Made by a program: the position numbers and the translations under genes
Notes under the pieces: model-generated
The model's input: only the letters and a program-made list of their open reading frames with translations
Told to the model about the DNA's origin: nothing
Database searches by the model: none
Shown: in pieces, positions 2-24,474 of the stretch
How positions within the stretch are numbered: position 1 is the stretch's first letter
Layout of the letters: each line of letters opens with the position of its first letter
DNA from: a virus
Taxonomy: Duplodnaviria > Caudoviricetes
IMG/VR virus record: IMGVR_UViG_3300033067_000886
Span: 1-34,632 of that record
DNA: 34,632 nucleotides
Direction: 5' to 3' (one strand)

Positions 2-1069
2 CGCCACCATCGCCGAGGAATAGACGTAGGTGGCGCCGGTGTACTGGAAGCGGTAGAGCGCAGCGTCGGACCACACCAGCGAGACGAATTCCGAGAGCAC
101 CGCGCCGCCGACGAGCTTGGTGCCTTCCGCCAGCGTGCGGATATTGGCGGTGTTGGTGGAGGTCGGCGTCCAGTCGTCATAGGTACCCTGCGAAGGCCAC
201 TTGACTTGCATGCCGTCGCAGAGCGCAAAGACGAAGCGCTCGGGCGTTACAAACATGGCGCGGATGTTGGTGGGCAGGCCGGGGTCGGCCGAAGCGATCA
301 GCGCCCGCGGCCACGGCTGGGCCTGCGTCGGGTCGAAATAATACAGCGAGCCGCCATTGTAGGCCGCAAGCAGATAGATGCCGAAGTGATCCAGCGACCA
401 GATGCGCGGCTCGATTGACACCGTCGAGGACGATCGCGCGGTACCCCAGGTACCGAGGCCCCAACCGCCGACACCCCAACCATAGCCGAACGCACCAAGC
501 TCGACGCCTACCGGAACCTCATATTTATAGGTGACGGCCGCGCCGCCTCCGGTAGCGTTCGAGGTAGCGTTCGAGGTGAACGTATAGGTGTAGTGGTCAT
601 TGTCGATCACGGTGTCGATCAGGAAAACGCCGTTTGGCGTGATGCCTCCGACGGCGGTGGCACCAGCGATCTCGACAGTGTCACCGACCGAGCCGCCGTG
701 GCCGACATGCGTAACCCTGACCGTCGGCGTTCCGATGAACACCTGCAACGGGTTATTGGCGAAGGTGCCGGTCGCACGATAAGGCGTGATGTCGTTCTGC
801 GCCTGCGCGGTGTCATAGACATAGAGCTTGCGGTATGTGCCGACAGCCATGTAGGCGTTGAAGGAGCGATCTCGCCACGCATGCAGCGCCCGCGGCACGC
901 CGGAGGTTGGCGTTGCAAAGGCCTTGATCCAGCCGCCGATCTTCTGCGGCAGACGCTTGACGAAGCGCGCATTGAGAGTGTCGGACCACCGGCCCTCGAT
1001 CACCCGCAGTGAATCGTTCTTGACGACGCCGGGCGGCGGCGCAATCGGGATTTCTTGTAGCTCTCCCAC
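2..1069 (-). CDS. Podovirus tail/nozzle (tail tubular-like) structural protein, runs off the window's left edge
   Basis: Translated by hand from a GTG at 1069: MGELQEIPIAPPPGVVKNDSLRVIEGRWSDTLNARFVKRLPQKIGGW...GWGVGGWGLGTWG...PRIWSLDHFG. These motifs are typical of a widespread phage tail protein family. It is missing from the ORF track because its stop lies outside the window. Confidence 0.75.
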   Translation of the reverse strand, partial: MGELQEIPIAPPPGVVKNDSLRVIEGRWSDTLNARFVKRLPQKIGGWIKAFATPTSGVPRALHAWRDRSFNAYMAVGTYRKLYVYDTAQAQNDITPYRATGTFANNPLQVFIGTPTVRVTHVGHGGSVGDTVEIAGATAVGGITPNGVFLIDTVIDNDHYTYTFTSNATSNATGGGAAVTYKYEVPVGVELGAFGYGWGVGGWGLGTWGTARSSSTVSIEPRIWSLDHFGIYLLAAYNGGSLYYFDPTQAQPWPRALIASADPGLPTNIRAMFVTPERFVFALCDGMQVKWPSQGTYDDWTPTSTNTANIRTLAEGTKLVGGAVLSEFVSLVWSDAALYRFQYTGATYVYSSAMVA

Positions 1070-1073
1070 GAGA

Positions 1074-2084
1074 TCAGTACCGGATGCAGATCAGAACGGC
1101 GGCGTTTTCCGGCCGCGCCTCGGTGCCGCCCTGCGAAACGGTTGCCAGCGTGCCGGCCGTCAGCGTGCCGGTGATGTTGTGGGTGTGGCCGCCGGCCGCG
1201 GCATTGGTGAGAGTGATGCCCGTCGTGTTCGACGAAACGCTTTGATAGACCGTGAAGGCGCCGAACGAACCGCCACCACCACCGTTGTTGTTATTGAGGC
1301 CACCGCCGGCAGCAAACGAGCCCGCGTGGGTGTGACCGGGGTCGGTCAGGGTGTTGACGTGGGTGTGGTTGCCGGGGTTGTCGGACGTCAGGGTGCCGAC
1401 GGCAGGAGCGCCCGAGATAGTATGCGTGTGCGCCGCGTTCTGGTTGGATTGCGTCGTCGCCACCGCGAGCGAGCCGCCGGCCGCGCGCAGGAAGCGGTTA
1501 TTGGTGGTGAAGTCCGGCAGCGTGAAATGCGTGCCGTCTACCGCTCCCCAGGTGGTGCCGATCTTGGCGAACAGGTCCGGGTAGGCGCTGCGAAGAAGCG
1601 AAGCGCCGTTACACTGGAGCGTGCCGGACTGCACCGTCGCACATGCGCTGTGCACGAGATCACCGATCTGCTCCTTGTCGTAGCGCTGGACGTTGGTGCC
1701 GTCGCAATAGAGCAGCTTCGAGGTGCCTTGCGGAATCTGGACGGCCGTGCCGCCAGACGTCTTGACGTAAAGGAAGAAGCTGTTGGTGGTATTGTTGCGC
1801 ACCAGCCAGAGCTTGGAGACGGCGGGAACCTGCATGGTCACGTCGCCGACCAGCGCGCCTGTGAAATTATGGATCATGTCGATGTCGAGCCGCATCCCCG
1901 AAGGCGGGGTGACGGTGGACAAATCAACGGTGCCGCTGGTTTCGGTATGAGTGGCGGTGCCGGCGATGGCGCGCGCGGCGATCTTGAACACCGAATTGTT
2001 GGCGTTGTCGCCCCAGGAGTTATTATCGTTGCCGGTCCCCATCAGCAGGAGACCGAGCACGGAATCGTAGGTATCGGCCGACAT
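1074..2084 (-). CDS. Tail fibre protein with phage tail collar domain
   Basis: Collar motif LQCNGASLLRSAYPDLFAKIGTTWG...FTLPD, several HTH/HxH repeats, and C-terminal EARPENAAVLICIRY. Confidence 0.85.
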   Translation of the reverse strand: MSADTYDSVLGLLLMGTGNDNNSWGDNANNSVFKIAARAIAGTATHTETSGTVDLSTVTPPSGMRLDIDMIHNFTGALVGDVTMQVPAVSKLWLVRNNTTNSFFLYVKTSGGTAVQIPQGTSKLLYCDGTNVQRYDKEQIGDLVHSACATVQSGTLQCNGASLLRSAYPDLFAKIGTTWGAVDGTHFTLPDFTTNNRFLRAAGGSLAVATTQSNQNAAHTHTISGAPAVGTLTSDNPGNHTHVNTLTDPGHTHAGSFAAGGGLNNNNGGGGGSFGAFTVYQSVSSNTTGITLTNAAAGGHTHNITGTLTAGTLATVSQGGTEARPENAAVLICIRY

Positions 2085-2968
2085 CAGGGGGTCTCCGTTC
2101 CGAACGTGGCGCCGCGGTAGCCGAAGTCGTCAACGACGGCGGTGGATTGGATCATGGCCTGCAACTCTGCGAGGAGCTTCTGATACTCGCCGTCGTCTTT
2201 CATGAATTTGGCGGCGGCAGCCATCGTCCCGACGAGGATCAGGTTGGGGTACTTGGTCGTGAGGAAGTTGCTGGTGTTGGTCGGCCCGAGCGGCAATGGC
2301 ATCTTGAAGTAGGGCAGCTTCATCACGGCGGCGGTGTCGAAAGCGAAGTCGAACTTCACTGCCTCATCCCAGACCGCCCAGGCCATCGGCGATCCCGCGA
2401 CAAGGTTCGCGGCCGTGTAAGCCGCGCTCGACCCGCCGCCGGAGCTTGAAGCGCTGGCGGTTCCGCCGGTGTCGATGACGAAATTGTCTGCATCCGTCAC
2501 GCTATCGACCGGGAAGGTGCCGTTCATCGTGATGCCGTTGACGGCGGCGGCGCCGGAGATCGTGACGGCGGAATCCTGATTGATGCCGTGCGCGGTATCG
2601 TTGACCGTCACCAAGCCACTATCCGCCACGGTGGTAAACGGGTTGTTGCCCAGCGCGACCGAGGCAACCTGCTCGTACATGCGCCGGCCCTCGATCACAG
2701 GCTGGATCAGCTGATCGTAGGAGACGTTGTTGGTGACGTCTCTAATCTTGCCGATCGGATCGAGAAAGCCGCTCGGCAGATCGACCGAGGCCTGACCAAT
2801 AGCTGCGCCGAACACCCACTCGCTGCGCATTTCGCGCGTGCGGAGCATCTGGAAGATGAGCCCTTCGGCCCATAGCAAAAGGGTCGGCGCATCCATCTTG
2901 GAATAGCCGACCCAATTGAGGATGGAACCAGCCGTACCTTTTGCGGCGGTGAGACTGATATAATCCAT
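2084..2968 (-). CDS. Head-tail adaptor protein with an inserted beta-rich (FCCH-like) module
   Basis: Adaptor-like motifs LRTREM...VDLPSGFL and TSNFLTTKYPNLILVG, located downstream of the capsid genes. Confidence 0.7.
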   Translation of the reverse strand: MDYISLTAAKGTAGSILNWVGYSKMDAPTLLLWAEGLIFQMLRTREMRSEWVFGAAIGQASVDLPSGFLDPIGKIRDVTNNVSYDQLIQPVIEGRRMYEQVASVALGNNPFTTVADSGLVTVNDTAHGINQDSAVTISGAAAVNGITMNGTFPVDSVTDADNFVIDTGGTASASSSGGGSSAAYTAANLVAGSPMAWAVWDEAVKFDFAFDTAAVMKLPYFKMPLPLGPTNTSNFLTTKYPNLILVGTMAAAAKFMKDDGEYQKLLAELQAMIQSTAVVDDFGYRGATFGTETP

Positions 2969-16193: not shown

Positions 16194-16971
16194 TCCCGGC
16201 CGCCCTCTCGCGGCGGAACTGCGCCAGATCAGAGGCCAAGCCGCCGTTCGACGGCCGCGGGTTGATCTCTTTCATCGCGTGCCCGTTGGGGCTGAGATCG
16301 CCCGGCTTGTCGGGATCGGCCGCGTTCGGCCGGGAAATATCAATCGCCGCGCCGCCCGAGACCTTGACCGCGCATGTCAGCGCGTCGACCAGGGCGGCGG
16401 TCCCGCGCATGTCGAGGAGCAGATACTCCGCCTTGTCGATCATGCGCCGGCCGAGCGCGATGTTGACCGCCATGCGGATGCGGTTCTCCTCGATCGCCAG
16501 TGTGGTGGAGGAGTGCTTCGGCTGGGTGCCATCCTTCGAGAGCAAATCCTTGATGTCGCTGGCCAGCGTGTCGTCGGCCAGCTTCTCGATCAGAAGCGCG
16601 GCCACCTCGCCGATGCCCTTGGGGCCTCCACCTTCGGCCTGCGGGGCCGCCGCGGCCTTGTGCTCGTGCCGATTGTTGAGCCGCTTGCGCTGGGTGCGCT
16701 TCTCCGGCGTATCGAGCGAATTGTTCTCCTGCTTGCTCTTGGCCACAGGCCCGCGCGCCTTCGGCGGATCGGCGCGTCCAGGGGCTCCTTTAAGATGGCG
16801 CCCGACGGTACCGCGCGACGTGACAAAGCCGAGCGCCTTCACTTCGTCGAGCACCTTGCCGGTCCCGGTGTCGCGGTTGCGAGCACGCATATAGTTGTAA
16901 ACGGCGAGCACCTGATCCTTGGTCGGTGCTTCGCCGCTGCCCGAGGGCAGATCGTCGAAGGTTTCGCTCAT
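16177..16971 (-). CDS. Candidate terminase small subunit / DNA-binding protein
   Basis: Immediately upstream of terL with an N-terminal HTH-like segment (GFVTSRGTVGRHLK); assignment is positional. Confidence 0.5.
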   Translation of the reverse strand: MSETFDDLPSGSGEAPTKDQVLAVYNYMRARNRDTGTGKVLDEVKALGFVTSRGTVGRHLKGAPGRADPPKARGPVAKSKQENNSLDTPEKRTQRKRLNNRHEHKAAAAPQAEGGGPKGIGEVAALLIEKLADDTLASDIKDLLSKDGTQPKHSSTTLAIEENRIRMAVNIALGRRMIDKAEYLLLDMRGTAALVDALTCAVKVSGGAAIDISRPNAADPDKPGDLSPNGHAMKEINPRPSNGGLASDLAQFRRERAAGNGARA

Positions 16972-17546
16972 ACCTCGCCAAACTGGCTGAAATCGAGCGC
17001 CGCGGTCTGCGGTGTTGCACTCTGGAGGCCGGGCACCTCCTCGAACGAGGAGAAGTCCAGCGATGGAGCCGCGCCACCATGGGTCGCGCGGCGGGTGTCT
17101 ATGTCGCCTGTGACATTGGAAAGCAGCGTGCCGACCGTGCCGGCTTTTCCAATGTGGGGATTCTCGCGCAACTCGCGCGCGGTGAACACCTGATCGACCG
17201 GCGTGTCCGGCGCCATGCCGAACATGCGGGCGCCGCGCCCCTCGCCGAAGTGATGGCCGGCGTAGGCCTCGGTGTCCGTGACGTCACGGCCGAGACGGCG
17301 TGACATACCCTTCTTCATGTTGGCGAAGTAGCGGTTGAACACCTTGGTCTGGCCATAAGGGTCATCGGCGTCGCCGTACTTGCCGCGCAGATCGCCCGAC
17401 ATCTGATAGAGGCCGCGCATCGAGCTTGATGCCTTGGCGCCGGGGTTGAACTTCGACTCGCGATCGGCATAGGCCAGCGCGGTCGCAGGGTCGATGCCGT
17501 CCTCCTCCGCGGCGCGGCGGATCGCCTCGCGGACGGCGTCGTTCAT
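16968..17546 (-). CDS. Lytic transglycosylase (SLT-like)
   Basis: GIDP...A..ES.FNP.A catalytic Glu motif, GLYQ and YAGHHFGEG. Confidence 0.8.
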   Translation of the reverse strand: MNDAVREAIRRAAEEDGIDPATALAYADRESKFNPGAKASSSMRGLYQMSGDLRGKYGDADDPYGQTKVFNRYFANMKKGMSRRLGRDVTDTEAYAGHHFGEGRGARMFGMAPDTPVDQVFTARELRENPHIGKAGTVGTLLSNVTGDIDTRRATHGGAAPSLDFSSFEEVPGLQSATPQTAALDFSQFGEV

Positions 17547-17866
17547 TCGTGGCGCTTGCCGAGCAGCTGCTCGGCGGCCTCGGTCTTGGCGGCCTGACCC
17601 TTCTGGTAGGGCATCCAGGCGGCGAAGCGGCCAAGCTCGGGCTTGGCGTCGTCGTCCTGCAAAAGCTCGACGCTGGTTCGGGCGTGCGACGTGCCGTTGC
17701 TGTCGAACACGACGAGGTTGACCATGCGGTCGCCCCAGACGTGAACCACCATGGCCGCCAGCGGCACGGTCTTGTCGTGCTGCTTGATCGCCGCATCGCT
17801 GTCAAATTCGCCGGATTTGAGGGCTGGCGTGTACCAGACGATGCGGCCATTGCTGGGCTGGATCAT
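17543..17866 (-). CDS. Conserved phage hypothetical protein (107 aa)
   Basis: MIQPSNGRIVWY...AAMVVHVW...VNLVVFD...WMPYQ; AGGAG SD; start trimmed from the longer ORF. Confidence 0.75.
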   Translation of the reverse strand: MIQPSNGRIVWYTPALKSGEFDSDAAIKQHDKTVPLAAMVVHVWGDRMVNLVVFDSNGTSHARTSVELLQDDDAKPELGRFAAWMPYQKGQAAKTEAAEQLLGKRHE

Positions 17867-17879
17867 TTTGCGGCTCCTG

Positions 17880-18233
17880 TTATTGTAAAGAAATACACCA
17901 ACGCTGTTGATGCGTTTTGAGGCGGTGACAGTTCGCACACAGGGTTTGGAGATTTTCTGGCGCTGAATTGTTGTGATCGCCGTCGATATGATCGACATCG
18001 AGTTGGCATGGGTGAGCGGCGACGAAGCCGCAGCGCTCGCAGAGCCCCTTCTTTTTCTTGGTGTACGCGGGACCGCGTTTTGTCGTTCGATAGCGCCGCT
18101 CATCGCATGGAGAGCACAGCGGCCGAAATTTACCGCCTGGACGCTTCTTTTGGGGATTTTTACCACACTTTAGACAAAGGCCGCGGATCGCGGCTCCATC
18201 CCCTTTGACGTAGACCTGCTTTGACACCACCAC
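17880..18233 (-). CDS. HNH endonuclease
   Basis: CERCG...LDVDHIDGDHNNSAPENLQTLCANCHRLKT plus N-terminal CxxC pairs. Confidence 0.88.
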   Translation of the reverse strand: MVVSKQVYVKGDGAAIRGLCLKCGKNPQKKRPGGKFRPLCSPCDERRYRTTKRGPAYTKKKKGLCERCGFVAAHPCQLDVDHIDGDHNNSAPENLQTLCANCHRLKTHQQRWCISLQ

Positions 18234-18238
18234 CCCCC

Positions 18239-18275
18239 AAACGCAAAGCGCCAGCCGTACATCCGGGCTGGCGCT
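18239..18275 (-). terminator. Putative intrinsic terminator closing the structured RNA locus
   Basis: 10-bp stem AGCGCCAGCC/GGCUGGCGCU followed by UUGCGUUU. Confidence 0.55.
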
Positions 18276-18560
18276 CCACTGACGCGGGACGGATCAGGTT
18301 CACCCCGGGGCTCTCACCGGCCGGTCCTGATCTGTGTCCCCGCAACCATGCCGTTCTCGGCAAGCGAACCCCTCGCAGGGTAAAAATCCACGGCACCAGC
18401 CAGCGGCTCCAGTGCCGGTCGGGCTTCCGCCCTTTCATGACGCGCCTGTCCGCTGGCGCGCTCCGGGTATTGGTCCCGGCCCTGAAACAACGCTGGGGGC
18501 ATTGCCTCGGGCCGGGGGCGCTCCCGGTCGGGAGGGAATCTCGACCGAGAACTCGAAACT

Positions 18561-18637
18561 TGGTTGCGGGGGTCAGATTCGAACTGACGACCTCGTGGTT
18601 ATGAGCCGCGCGAGCTACCGGGCTGCTCCACCCCGCA
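18561..18637 (-). tRNA. tRNA-Met(CAT), initiator-like
   Basis: Cloverleaf TGCGGGG-TG-GAGC..GCTC-G-CGCGG-CT CAT AA-CCACG-AGGTC-GTCAG TTCGAAT CTGAC-CCCCGCA-ACCA, closely resembling bacterial tRNA-fMet. Confidence 0.93.
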
Positions 18638-18894
18638 ACATCCCCGGCTTGCGCCGGGGGTCCACCGACTTCACCCCACGGGTGGGAGGCCTCGGCAGGG
18701 GCCTTCGCACGCTGGGGCCGTGTACCCAGCAGCTACGGAGCCGGGCGGTGCAGGGCGCGTCACCCCAGGGAGAACGCGCCAGATGCCTGTTCGTATGCAG
18801 GCACCTTGAACAGCTGCACCGCCCGAAACTGGTTCCCGCCTGCCGGAGCAAGCGGGATGCTTCAAGGACGAATCACCACCAATGAACAATCCCG

Positions 18895-18923
18895 ACTGTC
18901 TCACACCTTCCAAATCGAGGCAA
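18895..18923 (-). promoter_or_regulatory. Putative sigma70-type promoter for the structured RNA
   Basis: TTGCCT-N17-GACAGT with a TG extension; predicted start near 18888. Confidence 0.4.
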
Positions 18924-18959
18924 TACCCTTGCAGCAAAAGGGTTTCGTGCCTGTGGATT

Positions 18960-19553
18960 TCAATCTCGTTTGGGCGTCTCAGTCATTGTCTCGGTGTTGC
19001 GCACGGTGTTGTCCCAGACCCAGACGCGGCGCTCGACATTCCAGTCATAGGCCTTCCAGATCAGCTGCTCGTGGCCGGGGCTCGGGCCAACCTGACCGGG
19101 TAGCGCGCGGCCGGACAGCGCGTCGATCGCCACCTTCATCGGGGTCTCGTGGTGGACATTGTTGCGGCCGTCATAGGGTCCGCCCTCGCAGGGTCCATAC
19201 ATCGGATCGTCTTTCGGGTCGTGATCGGGCGCGTAAATGCCCCAATCAATGTCCAGTTCCTTGTCCGCGGCCAGCTGCTTGGCCATAGCGACCGTCGCTG
19301 GATCGCGCACACCCTTGTAATTGTAGAGGTGCCGGCTCTTGGCCGACTCGGCATAGATCGTGCGACGCCCGGCCTCGGTCGGGCTCTCCTCGACGACGAT
19401 ACCCTCGTTGGTCTGCCAGGAGCCATCGGGGTTCCGCCGCGCGCCGGACTTGCGCATCTTCTCGCCTACGGTCTCGCTGGTGGGCTCCTCGGCTCGATTG
19501 GCGAGCCGGCGCAGCTGGGATTGACCCTGCTTCATCCAGTCAGACAGGCTCAC
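18960..19553 (-). CDS. Hypothetical protein
   Basis: 197-aa ORF; GTG start overlaps the upstream gene. Confidence 0.7.
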   Translation of the reverse strand: MSLSDWMKQGQSQLRRLANRAEEPTSETVGEKMRKSGARRNPDGSWQTNEGIVVEESPTEAGRRTIYAESAKSRHLYNYKGVRDPATVAMAKQLAADKELDIDWGIYAPDHDPKDDPMYGPCEGGPYDGRNNVHHETPMKVAIDALSGRALPGQVGPSPGHEQLIWKAYDWNVERRVWVWDNTVRNTETMTETPKRD

Positions 19554-19971
19554 AGAACAGGTCTCCTATGGCTCGGGCGGCGTGAGCGCGGGCCTTGATG
19601 CCGGCGCGGCGGGTGGGCATATCGTACCGGTTATGACAACCTTGGCACATATGTAGGAGGTTTTCGTCCCGGCAGTCTTGAGGTTTGTGGTTTAAGTGGG
19701 CCACGGTTAGAACGATGGTTATCACCTTTTCGCCATTCGGCGAGTCGATGACACCGGCATTGTCGTAAAAGGTGCCGTTAGCCTGCCACCATCCCCGTAA
19801 TCCGTTGTATAGCTTGCAGCGATCCCATCCATCTTCCATACCGCCGCCGTGCGATTGTCCGCACTGCCCGGTGCACTCGCACCTGTTGCCGGAGCGCGCG
19901 CGGATGCGTGGCACGATCTCCGACTTCCAGTTCGGCGGGTAGAGCGCCTTGTTTTCAGGCCGGATAGGCAT
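19540..19971 (-). CDS. HNH-like protein
   Basis: MPIRPENKALYPPNW...RSGNRCEC...IVLTVAHLNH...NLLHMCQGCHNRYD; start trimmed to the ATG at 19971. Confidence 0.8.
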   Translation of the reverse strand: MPIRPENKALYPPNWKSEIVPRIRARSGNRCECTGQCGQSHGGGMEDGWDRCKLYNGLRGWWQANGTFYDNAGVIDSPNGEKVITIVLTVAHLNHKPQDCRDENLLHMCQGCHNRYDMPTRRAGIKARAHAARAIGDLFCEPV

Positions 19972-20194
19972 GGCCGCGCACCTTTTTCCACCAAAACCGC
20001 AGGGAGAACTTGTACAGGCCGCACCAGCCGGCGCGTCGCAGCACCATGGGCACCTGTGAGGAGAATGGCGAGGTCGCCGTCGGCGGGGCGCCGTAGCAAT
20101 AGCCGATCCTGGCGACACCATCGCTTGGGTTGGTCTCGTCGGGAATATCTCGCCGTCCGATGCAGAAGCGGCAGGTTTCACACCTTCTTGCCAA
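19955..20194 (-). CDS. Small Cys-rich protein
   Basis: CETCRFC...GYCYGAPP...WCG; TTG start after a GGAGGAGG SD. Confidence 0.6.
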   Translation of the reverse strand: MARRCETCRFCIGRRDIPDETNPSDGVARIGYCYGAPPTATSPFSSQVPMVLRRAGWCGLYKFSLRFWWKKVRGHAYPA

Positions 20195-20549
20195 GACGAG
20201 CCTCCTCCAGGATGCCGTGAGCACGGGTGCGCTCGGCGTCGTTCATGTTGCGGATGCGCTTGCTGGCGCCGAAGTGCTTGCGGCGGTACCAGTCATGCAC
20301 CGACAGCCGCACCGGGCCGGGGGATGGCGTGCGGTTGCGCATCAGGCGCCCGGCGTCAGACGGGCCGAGGTGCAGGCGCAGGTTCGAGCCGCGCTCATTC
20401 GGCATCTTGGCTCCGGCCTTGCTGTTGCGCGGCACAGCCGGGAACGGTTGCTCGAAGGGGAATGATTGGTCGCGTGGCCGGAAGTCGAGGATACGGCCTC
20501 CCAGCACAGCTGCCGCGGCGGCAAAAAAGCCCCTGAACCCGAACCTCAT
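20178..20549 (-). CDS. Hypothetical basic protein
   Basis: ATGA overlap with the upstream gene and a GAGG SD. Confidence 0.55.
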   Translation of the reverse strand: MRFGFRGFFAAAAAVLGGRILDFRPRDQSFPFEQPFPAVPRNSKAGAKMPNERGSNLRLHLGPSDAGRLMRNRTPSPGPVRLSVHDWYRRKHFGASKRIRNMNDAERTRAHGILEEARLGKKV

Positions 20550-23323: not shown

Positions 23324-23400
23324 TGGTGCCCTCGGCAGGACTCGAACCTGCAACCGTGGAAGTAGAATTTCCCTGCTCTATCCAGTTGAGCTACGAGGGC
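23324..23400 (-). tRNA. tRNA-Arg(TCT)
   Basis: GCCCTCG/CGAGGGC acceptor stem, A20 in the D-loop, anticodon loop AT-TCT-AC, TTCGAGT T-loop and encoded CCA. Confidence 0.9.
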
Positions 23401-24287: not shown

Positions 24288-24474
24288 GTTGCGGTTCCTC
24301 CTCGCCAGCATTGATCCACCAGCACCACGTACTGGAGCACTCGTTGAAGTCGGAAAGGCTGGTGGTGCCACAGGACGAGCAGTAGCCCGGCTCGCGCTTG
24401 GCAGGCGCAGCCGGAATCGAACCGGCTCCCTCGGTTTTGGAGACCGATGTGCTACCGGAACACCTTGCACCCAT
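24277..24474 (-). CDS. Possible small Cys-rich protein whose ORF runs through tRNA-Trp
   Basis: GGAGG-N5-ATG start, open through the tRNA, ends in CSSC...CSSTWC; its stop overlaps the next gene. Confidence 0.4.
   Translation of the reverse strand: MGARCSGSTSVSKTEGAGSIPAAPAKREPGYCSSCGTTSLSDFNECSSTWCWWINAGEEEPQRAA
24399..24472 (-). tRNA. tRNA-Trp(CCA)
   Basis: GGGTGCA/TGCGCCT acceptor stem, TCGGT-CT CCA AA-ACCGA anticodon arm, GCCGG TTCGATT CCGGC T-arm, G73 and CCA. Confidence 0.88.

Follow-up and report, generated by a model that had tools for sequence, protein, structure and literature searches.

A short RNA element, apparently undescribed and predicted to be antisense to both ends of the bacterial initiator tRNA, recurs in phage genomes. 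It lies at positions 18283 to 18367 (minus strand) of the window, by which we mean the whole 34,632-nt stretch of phage DNA analyzed here. Pattern searches of viral and metagenome contigs located it in 15 distinct phage loci, a count from which repeats of one phage (for example, L163, L165, and L166) were dropped. The locus is likely a late phage transcript that carries an initiator-like tRNA-Met, optional modules, and the antisense element at its 3' end. As far as sequence comparison reaches, the clear features of the element are its two arms with their complementarity to tRNAfMet, its tie to tRNA-Met genes, its cap hairpin, and a sequence that fits bacterial tRNAfMet better than the phage's own tRNA.

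The phage and its relatives

The window comes from a 54%-complete IMG/VR phage record in which the recognizable genes lie on the minus strand; those following the locus on that strand encode tail, major head, portal, large terminase, and transglycosylase proteins. DNA nearly identical to the window was present in river, freshwater, and wastewater sequencing runs, and contigs from four DNA runs of four studies contained the locus without any difference, so the locus is not an assembly artifact. No strain variants that could inform covariation were present in these four runs. From two RNA-labelled wastewater runs, both belonging to one study, came contigs over coding and noncoding parts, one of them bridging the terminator. 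Since these contigs carry no strand, end, or level information and DNA may have been present, they are uninformative on expression.

Searches by blastn against cultured phages and plasmids returned matches to the tRNA alone or chance matches, and the cultured relatives of the window terminase are distant (about 23 to 30% identical). Related loci were gathered by terminase (24 loci) and transglycosylase (30 loci) searches. In the closest relative, L004, the terminase is 97% identical to that of the window, and the whole locus aligns with 84% identity over aligned bases. No tRNA-handling enzyme, integrase, or reverse transcriptase came up when 100 ORFs chosen from two near-complete relatives were scanned against Pfam.

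Several mobile or tRNA-like sequences occur in these records. A free-standing 117-aa HNH endonuclease is encoded in the window between the terminal hairpin of the locus and the next gene (17880 to 18233, minus strand) and is missing from L004 and L005. HEARO/IscB-type systems couple an RNA to a protein in which RuvC parts accompany the HNH; this reading was rejected because the adjacent ORF has HNH matches only and is absent from both relatives. An overlapping record of the same phage encodes an IS1595-family transposase (L351:8466-9590, plus strand). The window also contains genes for tRNA-Arg(UCU) (23324 to 23400) and tRNA-Trp(CCA) (24399 to 24472), both on the minus strand, and by eye the antisense element was seen behind neither. 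A tRNA-Met 5' fragment in L010 (4555 to 4650) is apparently fused to another tRNA-like sequence, one left unassigned by ARAGORN, and L143 carries a group II intron 3' end (RF00029, 41.3 bits; 1718 to 1794, minus strand) about 110 nt upstream of its tRNA-Met.

A noncoding locus with a modular layout

The preliminary description of this DNA took the stretch to be noncoding and strongly folded, and both points were borne out. Overlapping ORFs reach 183 aa, but none of the five tested matched a PHROG family, and in L004 the frames are broken by indels (1, 2, and 47 nt). Folding was more stable than that of dinucleotide shuffles on both strands (z = -5.94 on the minus and -4.93 on the plus strand; 20 shuffles per strand). 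With the tRNA and terminator removed, the 5' part scored z = -4.3 and the 3' part z = -2.8, against a background of 26 windows with a mean z of -1.1 and a minimum of -3.8.

The helices proposed earlier are present on the minus strand, including the 12-bp helix 18742-18753/18814-18825, the two helices inside it (18754-18760/18774-18780 and 18784-18789/18798-18803), and a long hairpin (18284 to 18343) that is in fact part of the small anti-initiator-tRNA element at the 3' end. The 11-bp helix 18520-18530/18542-18552 also exists, and because its full pairing requires G-U pairs, it favors the minus strand. A 7-bp pseudoknot (18804-18810/18861-18867) and three GNRA-capped hairpins (GCAA, GGAA, and GCGA, minus strand) were found in the window as described, but not all of them are kept in L004: two of the seven pseudoknot pairs break there, the GGAA hairpin is lost, and UUCG stands in place of the GCAA loop. 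Covariation among homologs was likewise found in part. The stem of the cap hairpin described below covaries, but the multiloop helices show no change in L004, and so give no covariation, and went unseen in every other relative. Against L004, two-sided changes occur at 17 of 209 predicted pairs.

The promoter and terminator-like hairpin previously suggested to bracket the unit are backed in position by the related loci; an E. coli-type scan of the window called neither. The promoter, likely of the sigma-70 type (18895 to 18923, minus strand), has a -35 TTGCCT (18918 to 18923), a 17-nt spacer, and a weak -10 GACAGT (18895 to 18900); it falls below the E. coli consensus threshold, and the same layout stands ahead of a GcrA/CcrM box in 11 of 31 related loci. 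In the window, this box is TGATTCG (18869 to 18875, minus strand), a match to YGAKTCG some 14 to 20 nt past the inferred start. According to the available portion of a study of the GcrA box consensus YGAKTCG, such boxes may lie at +5 to +30 (PMC9976885). A promoter followed by a GcrA-type box suggests that the phage host is alphaproteobacterial.

At the other end of the unit is a terminal hairpin (18239 to 18275, minus strand) with a 9-nt loop, CGGAUGUAC (18257 to 18265), and a U-rich tail. It is likely a terminator and has counterparts in 10 of 31 related loci. The loop or a close variant of it is near-invariant on freely varying stems, also in some units without tRNA-Met, and hairpins with the CGGAUGUAC loop were found in the window (18247 to 18275, minus strand), L112, L116, L121, L128, and L129. 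It could be a site for protein binding or antitermination ahead of the late genes. The distance from promoter-box to terminal hairpin is 175 to 610 nt in the eight loci with both, three of which have no tRNA-Met inside.

Within this frame, the filling is optional (all coordinates are on the minus strand). Upstream of the tRNA, the window has a hairpin (18832 to 18860) and a three-helix multiloop (18742 to 18825; z = -6.2), which together occupy 18742 to 18860, followed by small hairpins at 18642 to 18735 that include the GCAA-capped one and whose stems, by comparison with L004, are partly kept there with one- and two-sided changes. Downstream, the helix check in the window placed a hairpin with the loop UUCCCUCC at 18520 to 18552. 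This loop (18531 to 18539), directly after the tRNA, is anti-Shine-Dalgarno-like, and read by eye it recurs on a different stem in L004 and L005; alphaproteobacterial small RNAs carry anti-Shine-Dalgarno loops. A further module at 18391 to 18513 (z = -4.0) consists of a hairpin (18478 to 18513) and then two hairpins (18440 to 18461 and 18391 to 18417) with complementary loops (AGCGG/CCGCU) that are candidates for kissing. A pattern for this pair gave 33 matches, of which three were true, and it is found in just three phages (the window, L004, and L116), where its stems are fully paired with two-sided changes, its five loop-loop pairs are invariant, and its hairpins are separated by inserts of very different length. 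This two-hairpin kissing module could be a separate small structured RNA.

The idea of a single ornate RNA wrapped around the tRNA did not survive comparison with relatives, in which unit length and content vary severalfold. Helices of at least 8 bp that span the tRNA and are shared by the window and L004 numbered 7 versus a null mean of 5.3, and none had a two-sided change. Because the frame is kept, the filling is variable, and cross-tRNA helices occur at chance, we conclude from these comparisons that the predicted RNA is a modular transcript and not a single wrapped fold.

Membership in the GOLLD or ROOL classes, also raised in the preliminary description, was not supported by Rfam searches, which matched the tRNA alone in the window, also at an E value of 10, and thus assigned the locus to no Rfam family; for neither class was a positive control obtained. 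The GOLLD 3' domain P14-P27 (RF02032, 416 positions) had no match in the window at the gathering threshold or at an E value of 10, and RF02032 had none at gathering in 17 related loci, with no true GOLLD control found in 126 genomes. ROOL (RF03087) had no match in the window, a null limited by the fact that its control gave no match either. A GOLLD architecture, which is shared across members and has covarying long-range pseudoknots, was rejected on the unit length of 175 to 610 nt, the broken pseudoknot in L004, and the chance level of cross-tRNA helices. In the accessible part of the supplement of Kretsch et al. (PMC12286853), a single UGGUUGCG match was found, in an alignment linker, although alignment gaps break strings in that source.

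The initiator-like tRNA-Met of the phage

The tRNA-Met(CAT) lies within the locus, as first described, at 18561 to 18637 (minus strand), with its CCA encoded. It is 80 to 86% identical to bacterial tRNAfMet genes, which, together with phage tRNAs annotated as fMet, are its nearest matches. Initiator tRNAs are marked by A11-U24, G-C pairs at the base of the anticodon stem, and a C1.A72 mismatch. The phage tRNA has A11 and two of the three G-C pairs, a U1-A72 first pair in place of C1.A72, and a C29.A41 mismatch in the anticodon stem. C1.A72 is absent from all 14 phage tRNA-Met of element-bearing loci. U1 was also present in four of six phage initiator-like tRNAs with no element seen, and because it is common in such tRNAs, the differences from the bacterial tRNA need not be escape. 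The complete relative G002 has a single tRNA gene, the initiator-like one.

The antisense element and its tie to tRNA-Met

From 5' to 3', the element consists of a cap hairpin, UGGUUGCG(GGG), a spacer, and (C)CCCGCG. In the window (minus strand), the cap is "hairpin A" (18349 to 18367), made up of UCGCU and a 5-bp hairpin with an AGAA loop, directly 5' of arm 1. Arm 1 (18335 to 18348) begins UGGUUGCGGGG and is complementary to the initiator tRNA 3' end including CCA. Arm 2 (18283 to 18297) ends UCCCGCG (18283 to 18289) and is complementary to the tRNA 5' end, its last G pairing with the bacterial C1. The insert between the arms (18290 to 18337) is the long hairpin and reads as a decayed inverted copy of the tRNAfMet body, to which 5 of 500 interior shuffles aligned equally well. 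In short forms the insert has shrunk to 1 to 3 nt, and the spacer ranges from 1 to about 95 nt across loci; the shortest elements have 17 nt between arm ends, and short forms total about 40 nt. Computed folds of the free element pair the arms like an acceptor stem and leave UGGU open.

Over 11 distinct rows, hairpin A is paired in 55 of 55 cells, and two of its pairs show two-sided change. An unrelated hairpin replaces it directly before UGG in L116 and L177, so that a hairpin adjoins UGG in 15/15 elements by means of three unrelated sequences. A same-strand tRNA-Met lies upstream in 14 of the 15 loci; the remaining contig, L142, begins 146 nt upstream of the element. Arm 1 is 22 to 344 nt from the tRNA CCA in 13 loci, and in L177 the tRNA-Met is about 1.2 kb away, past an ORF and a terminator-like hairpin. 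With a pattern that stopped at the cap hairpin, 96 distinct matches were obtained: TGGTTGC came next in all 7 with a tRNA-Met at most 600 nt upstream and in 1 of the 89 others, which was the L004 phage with its flank cut short. The tie between arm 1 and tRNA-Met is therefore not an artifact of the pattern. Arm 2, which lies outside the cap-hairpin patterns, is exact (CCCCGCG) in five of seven short forms, where chance would give 0.0035 each, and poor in L142 (3/7); arm 2 registers were chosen by eye. The late genes that come next differ among the loci (an SLT cluster, an HNH gene, a likely small terminase, and a likely holin), so the element has spread across lineages. In six of seven long forms, folding is better on the tRNA strand than on the opposite one, the window being the exception.

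The metagenome pattern gave 30 matches, of which 7 were true elements and 3 of those repeats of known phages, and the two-arm pattern gave 26 matches, 4 of them true. Five further phage records that carry an initiator-like tRNA had no match to the short two-arm pattern anywhere in the genome. Searching 60 sources with a covariance model of the element added no new case, and the long-form pattern gave 61 matches in GTDB genomes, none near a tRNA, and no match in 401 Rhizobium-order genomes. Rfam searches of 17 related and 20 hairpin-A loci returned tRNAs, the group II intron end of L143, and a sub-threshold tmRNA (L201) only.

Hairpin A, with UCGCU and an AGAA or AGUA loop, also recurs in viral contigs without any tRNA (L167 to L285). 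Among these distinct matches, the unconstrained stem positions pair in 23 of 29 outside ORFs versus 31 of 67 within ORFs. Copies lie 4 to 14 nt from contig ends in L192, L209, L212, L221, L250, L282, and L284 and just past promoter-like sites in L187 and L204. L177 has two HNH-like ORFs: one (683 to 1222, plus strand) is inserted in reverse and separates the cap hairpin from the arms, and the other (1947 to 2297, minus strand) lies just ahead of tRNA-Met; the tRNA/element cassette appears to attract HNH-like genes.

Preference for bacterial tRNAfMet

Arm 1 of the window forms 11 Watson-Crick pairs with the tail of its own tRNA and with four bacterial tRNAfMet types, 14 with a Mesorhizobium-type tRNAfMet, and 3 with one Caulobacteraceae type. 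In L012 and L149, there are 16 straight pairs to a Rhizobium/Hoeflea-type tRNAfMet versus 4 and 7, respectively, to the phage's own tRNA. At 41 arm sites where own and bacterial tRNAs differ, the element agrees with the bacterial tRNA at 38, with its own at 2, and with neither at 1. Many of these differences are C-to-U, so the G of the element still wobbles with the own tRNA. By co-folding energy, bacterial tRNAfMet ranked first among 29 Hoeflea tRNAs for 15/15 elements; the Hoeflea genome is a stand-in that may not be the host's, 30 of its 46 tRNA loci were taken, and there is some circularity in the ranking, since most of the element set was defined by arm 1. Bacterial tRNAfMet was also predicted to bind more strongly than the own phage tRNA in 14/14 cases, with a gap of only 0.7 kcal/mol in the window, where the own tail pairs 11/11.

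A weak likeness to inverted tRNAfMet runs the length of the long forms, with 5 to 43 of 500 interior shuffles scoring as high. It points to a probable origin of the element as an inverted copy of tRNAfMet that lost its middle to decay but kept its ends.

Possible mode of action

The reading that we prefer, to which we give not quite an even chance, is that the host initiator tRNA is captured in trans by an antisense RNA that descends from an inverted copy of tRNAfMet. The unit would be transcribed on the tRNA strand, and host RNases would release the tRNA and its trailer. In the free element, the arms would pair as a copy of the acceptor stem and UGGU would stay single-stranded beside the cap hairpin. 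UGGU would then pair with the ACCA of a tRNA, most easily if that tRNA is uncharged or damaged, and the cap hairpin would stack on the resulting helix. Branch migration would swap the strands and turn the bacterial C1.A72 mismatch into two Watson-Crick pairs, a gain that would favor the host initiator tRNA over other tRNAs and the phage tRNA. A captured host tRNAfMet could be neither charged nor formylated, and initiation would shift toward the phage's own tRNA. Against capture, a late-stage infection would pay dearly for losing initiator tRNA if the phage tRNA did not substitute for it. Capture is also weakened by the window itself, where the own tail pairs fully with arm 1, that pairing is predicted in cis with P = 1.0, and the opposite strand folds better, and by the frequency of U1 in phage tRNAs with no element seen. 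A fuller version, which we regard as doubtful, would have the anti-tRNA read C1.A72 by toehold strand exchange, capture the host tRNAfMet, and thereby free a locked phage tRNA in one-for-one replacement.

Alternatively, the element may act in cis, its arms pairing with both ends of its own tRNA in the precursor and blocking RNase P and 3' trimming until a trigger arrives; the trigger could be host tRNAfMet, again in one-for-one exchange. Among 13 precursors, the predicted probability that the own tail pairs with arm 1 is 1.0 in four (the window, L004, L005, and L116), 0.8 in L012, and 0.36 to 0.6 in L099, L140, and L149; in the consensus fold of the window and L004, the element is paired to the tRNA at both of its ends, and it lies at most 350 nt from the tRNA in 13 of 14 cases. 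The same pairing is at most 0.14 in 5 of 13 precursors, however, the arms do not covary with the own tRNA (2 of 41 sites), and the L177 tRNA is about 1.2 kb off. In the window, the acceptor stem can be forced at a cost of only 4.6 kcal/mol in a model that omits tRNA tertiary structure. Together these points make a lock in cis unlikely. The element could also be a neutral relic of an inverted tRNAfMet duplication riding with the tRNA cassette. Such an origin would make complementarity to the host tRNA automatic, and it fits the weak likeness of the long forms to tRNAfMet and the HNH insertions, which show a region tolerating change. Nearly exact ends around a middle of 1 to about 95 nt, a hairpin abutting UGG in every element by three unrelated sequences, and a covarying cap stem leave a relic improbable.

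Two explanations look past the RNA of the tRNA strand, and a third returns to the locus as a whole. If the opposite strand were the working one, its RNA would be a tRNAfMet mimic, with C1.A72, acceptor pairs, and an ACCA end, that serves as a decoy for tRNA-attacking defense enzymes. The reverse complement of the element does join both ends of bacterial tRNAfMet, and in the window this strand folds better (-34.3 versus -29.3 kcal/mol). Yet the tRNA strand is the better folded in six of seven long forms and has more G-U pairs (19 versus 8), no plus-strand promoter was called within 16500 to 20500, and the short forms would keep just three base pairs, with the conserved C-run in the loop, so that we consider the mimic very improbable. 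We place equally little weight on one large ornate, GOLLD/ROOL-like RNA that assembles into a cage and stores tRNA. Strong folding, the 17 of 209 pairs with two-sided change versus L004, and the candidate kissing module in three phages would suit a cage, as would, in the accessible part of the published GOLLD material, the position of GOLLD env-38 downstream of a Met-tRNA and the embedding of a tRNA in some GOLLDs. Against it stand the lack of a match to either model even at an E value of 10, modules gained and lost among relatives, the pseudoknot broken in L004, and cross-tRNA helices that are not in excess. A site acting in the DNA, whether an attP core for integration into the host tRNAfMet 3' end or a primer-binding site at which a tRNA would start DNA synthesis, is in our view the most remote of these readings. 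The cores of attP sites at tRNA genes are about 14 to 16 nt long, as is arm 1 in four long forms (14 to 16 nt), and 2 of 10 records have an integrase-like match (PF00589). No tyrosine integrase was found in the three records at least 90% complete, however, and no RVT_1 (PF00078) in five records, two of them complete, although divergent enzymes could escape that search. No integrated copy was seen among the 61 GTDB pattern matches or the 401 Rhizobium-order genomes, and a DNA site leaves arm 2 unexplained.

Relation to known RNA systems

The nearest parallels in action are the T-box antiterminator and the primer-binding site, and the element is a member of none of the systems compared. In the T-box antiterminator, as the available text of a recent account describes it, UGGN pairs with the tRNA 3'-NCCA beside a stacking helix (PMC12990946). 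The UGGU of the element is similarly complementary to the ACCA of bacterial tRNAfMet in 15/15 cases, but here pairing continues for 7 to 16 nt along the acceptor stem, and the 5' strand of the tRNA falls to a second arm. The element also lacks Stem I with its Specifier codon, has no T-box match in Rfam searches of the window and 17 related loci, and lies behind a tRNA gene and ahead of phage late genes, whereas T-boxes are leaders of amino-acid genes. No terminator/antiterminator switch was evident at the element. The primer-binding sites of retroviruses and LTR elements, for which initiator tRNA is a common primer, begin with UGG, complement the tRNA 3' end, and unzip the acceptor stem. The element shares the initial UGG and the complementarity to the tRNA 3' end but has a second arm and belongs to a phage DNA genome, with reverse transcriptase in 0/5 records.

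Theta ribozymes are HDV-like self-cleavers of gut phages, 77% of which lie at most 1 nt from a tRNA end, according to the part of the source available (PMC10879173). They resemble the element as small conserved RNAs in the 3' trailer of a phage tRNA gene ahead of late genes, but the element is 22 to 344 nt or more from the tRNA and antisense to it, and by inspection and the lack of an Rfam match, it has no HDV-like core with a catalytic C in J4/2. In the accessible text of Kretsch et al. (bioRxiv 10.1101/2024.12.08.627333), GOLLD is located in phages near or around a tRNA gene. GOLLD and ROOL RNAs are abundant at full length and assemble into nanocages. GOLLD (RF02032) and ROOL (RF03087) share with the present locus a phage structured RNA near a tRNA gene and a similar overall size, whereas the element is without the conserved 3' domain of about 400 nt in GOLLD and has a core of about 40 nt, the remainder being optional.

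Implications

The literature that we found does not describe the element; an unnamed entry is possible in the Fremin 2023 or Weinberg 2017 catalogues (PMC10690425, PMC5737381), which were available in part. If the proposed capture is true, an RNA that unzips the host initiator tRNA would be a new control of translation initiation and would let a virus act directly on how protein synthesis begins. tRNAs are a recognized battleground between phages and bacteria, and to our knowledge the known weapons over them are proteins and replacement tRNAs. With the shortest forms at about 40 nt, binding, charging sensitivity, and processing are accessible with synthetic RNA. The proposal also makes it testable why small phages with a single tRNA gene retain an initiator tRNA.
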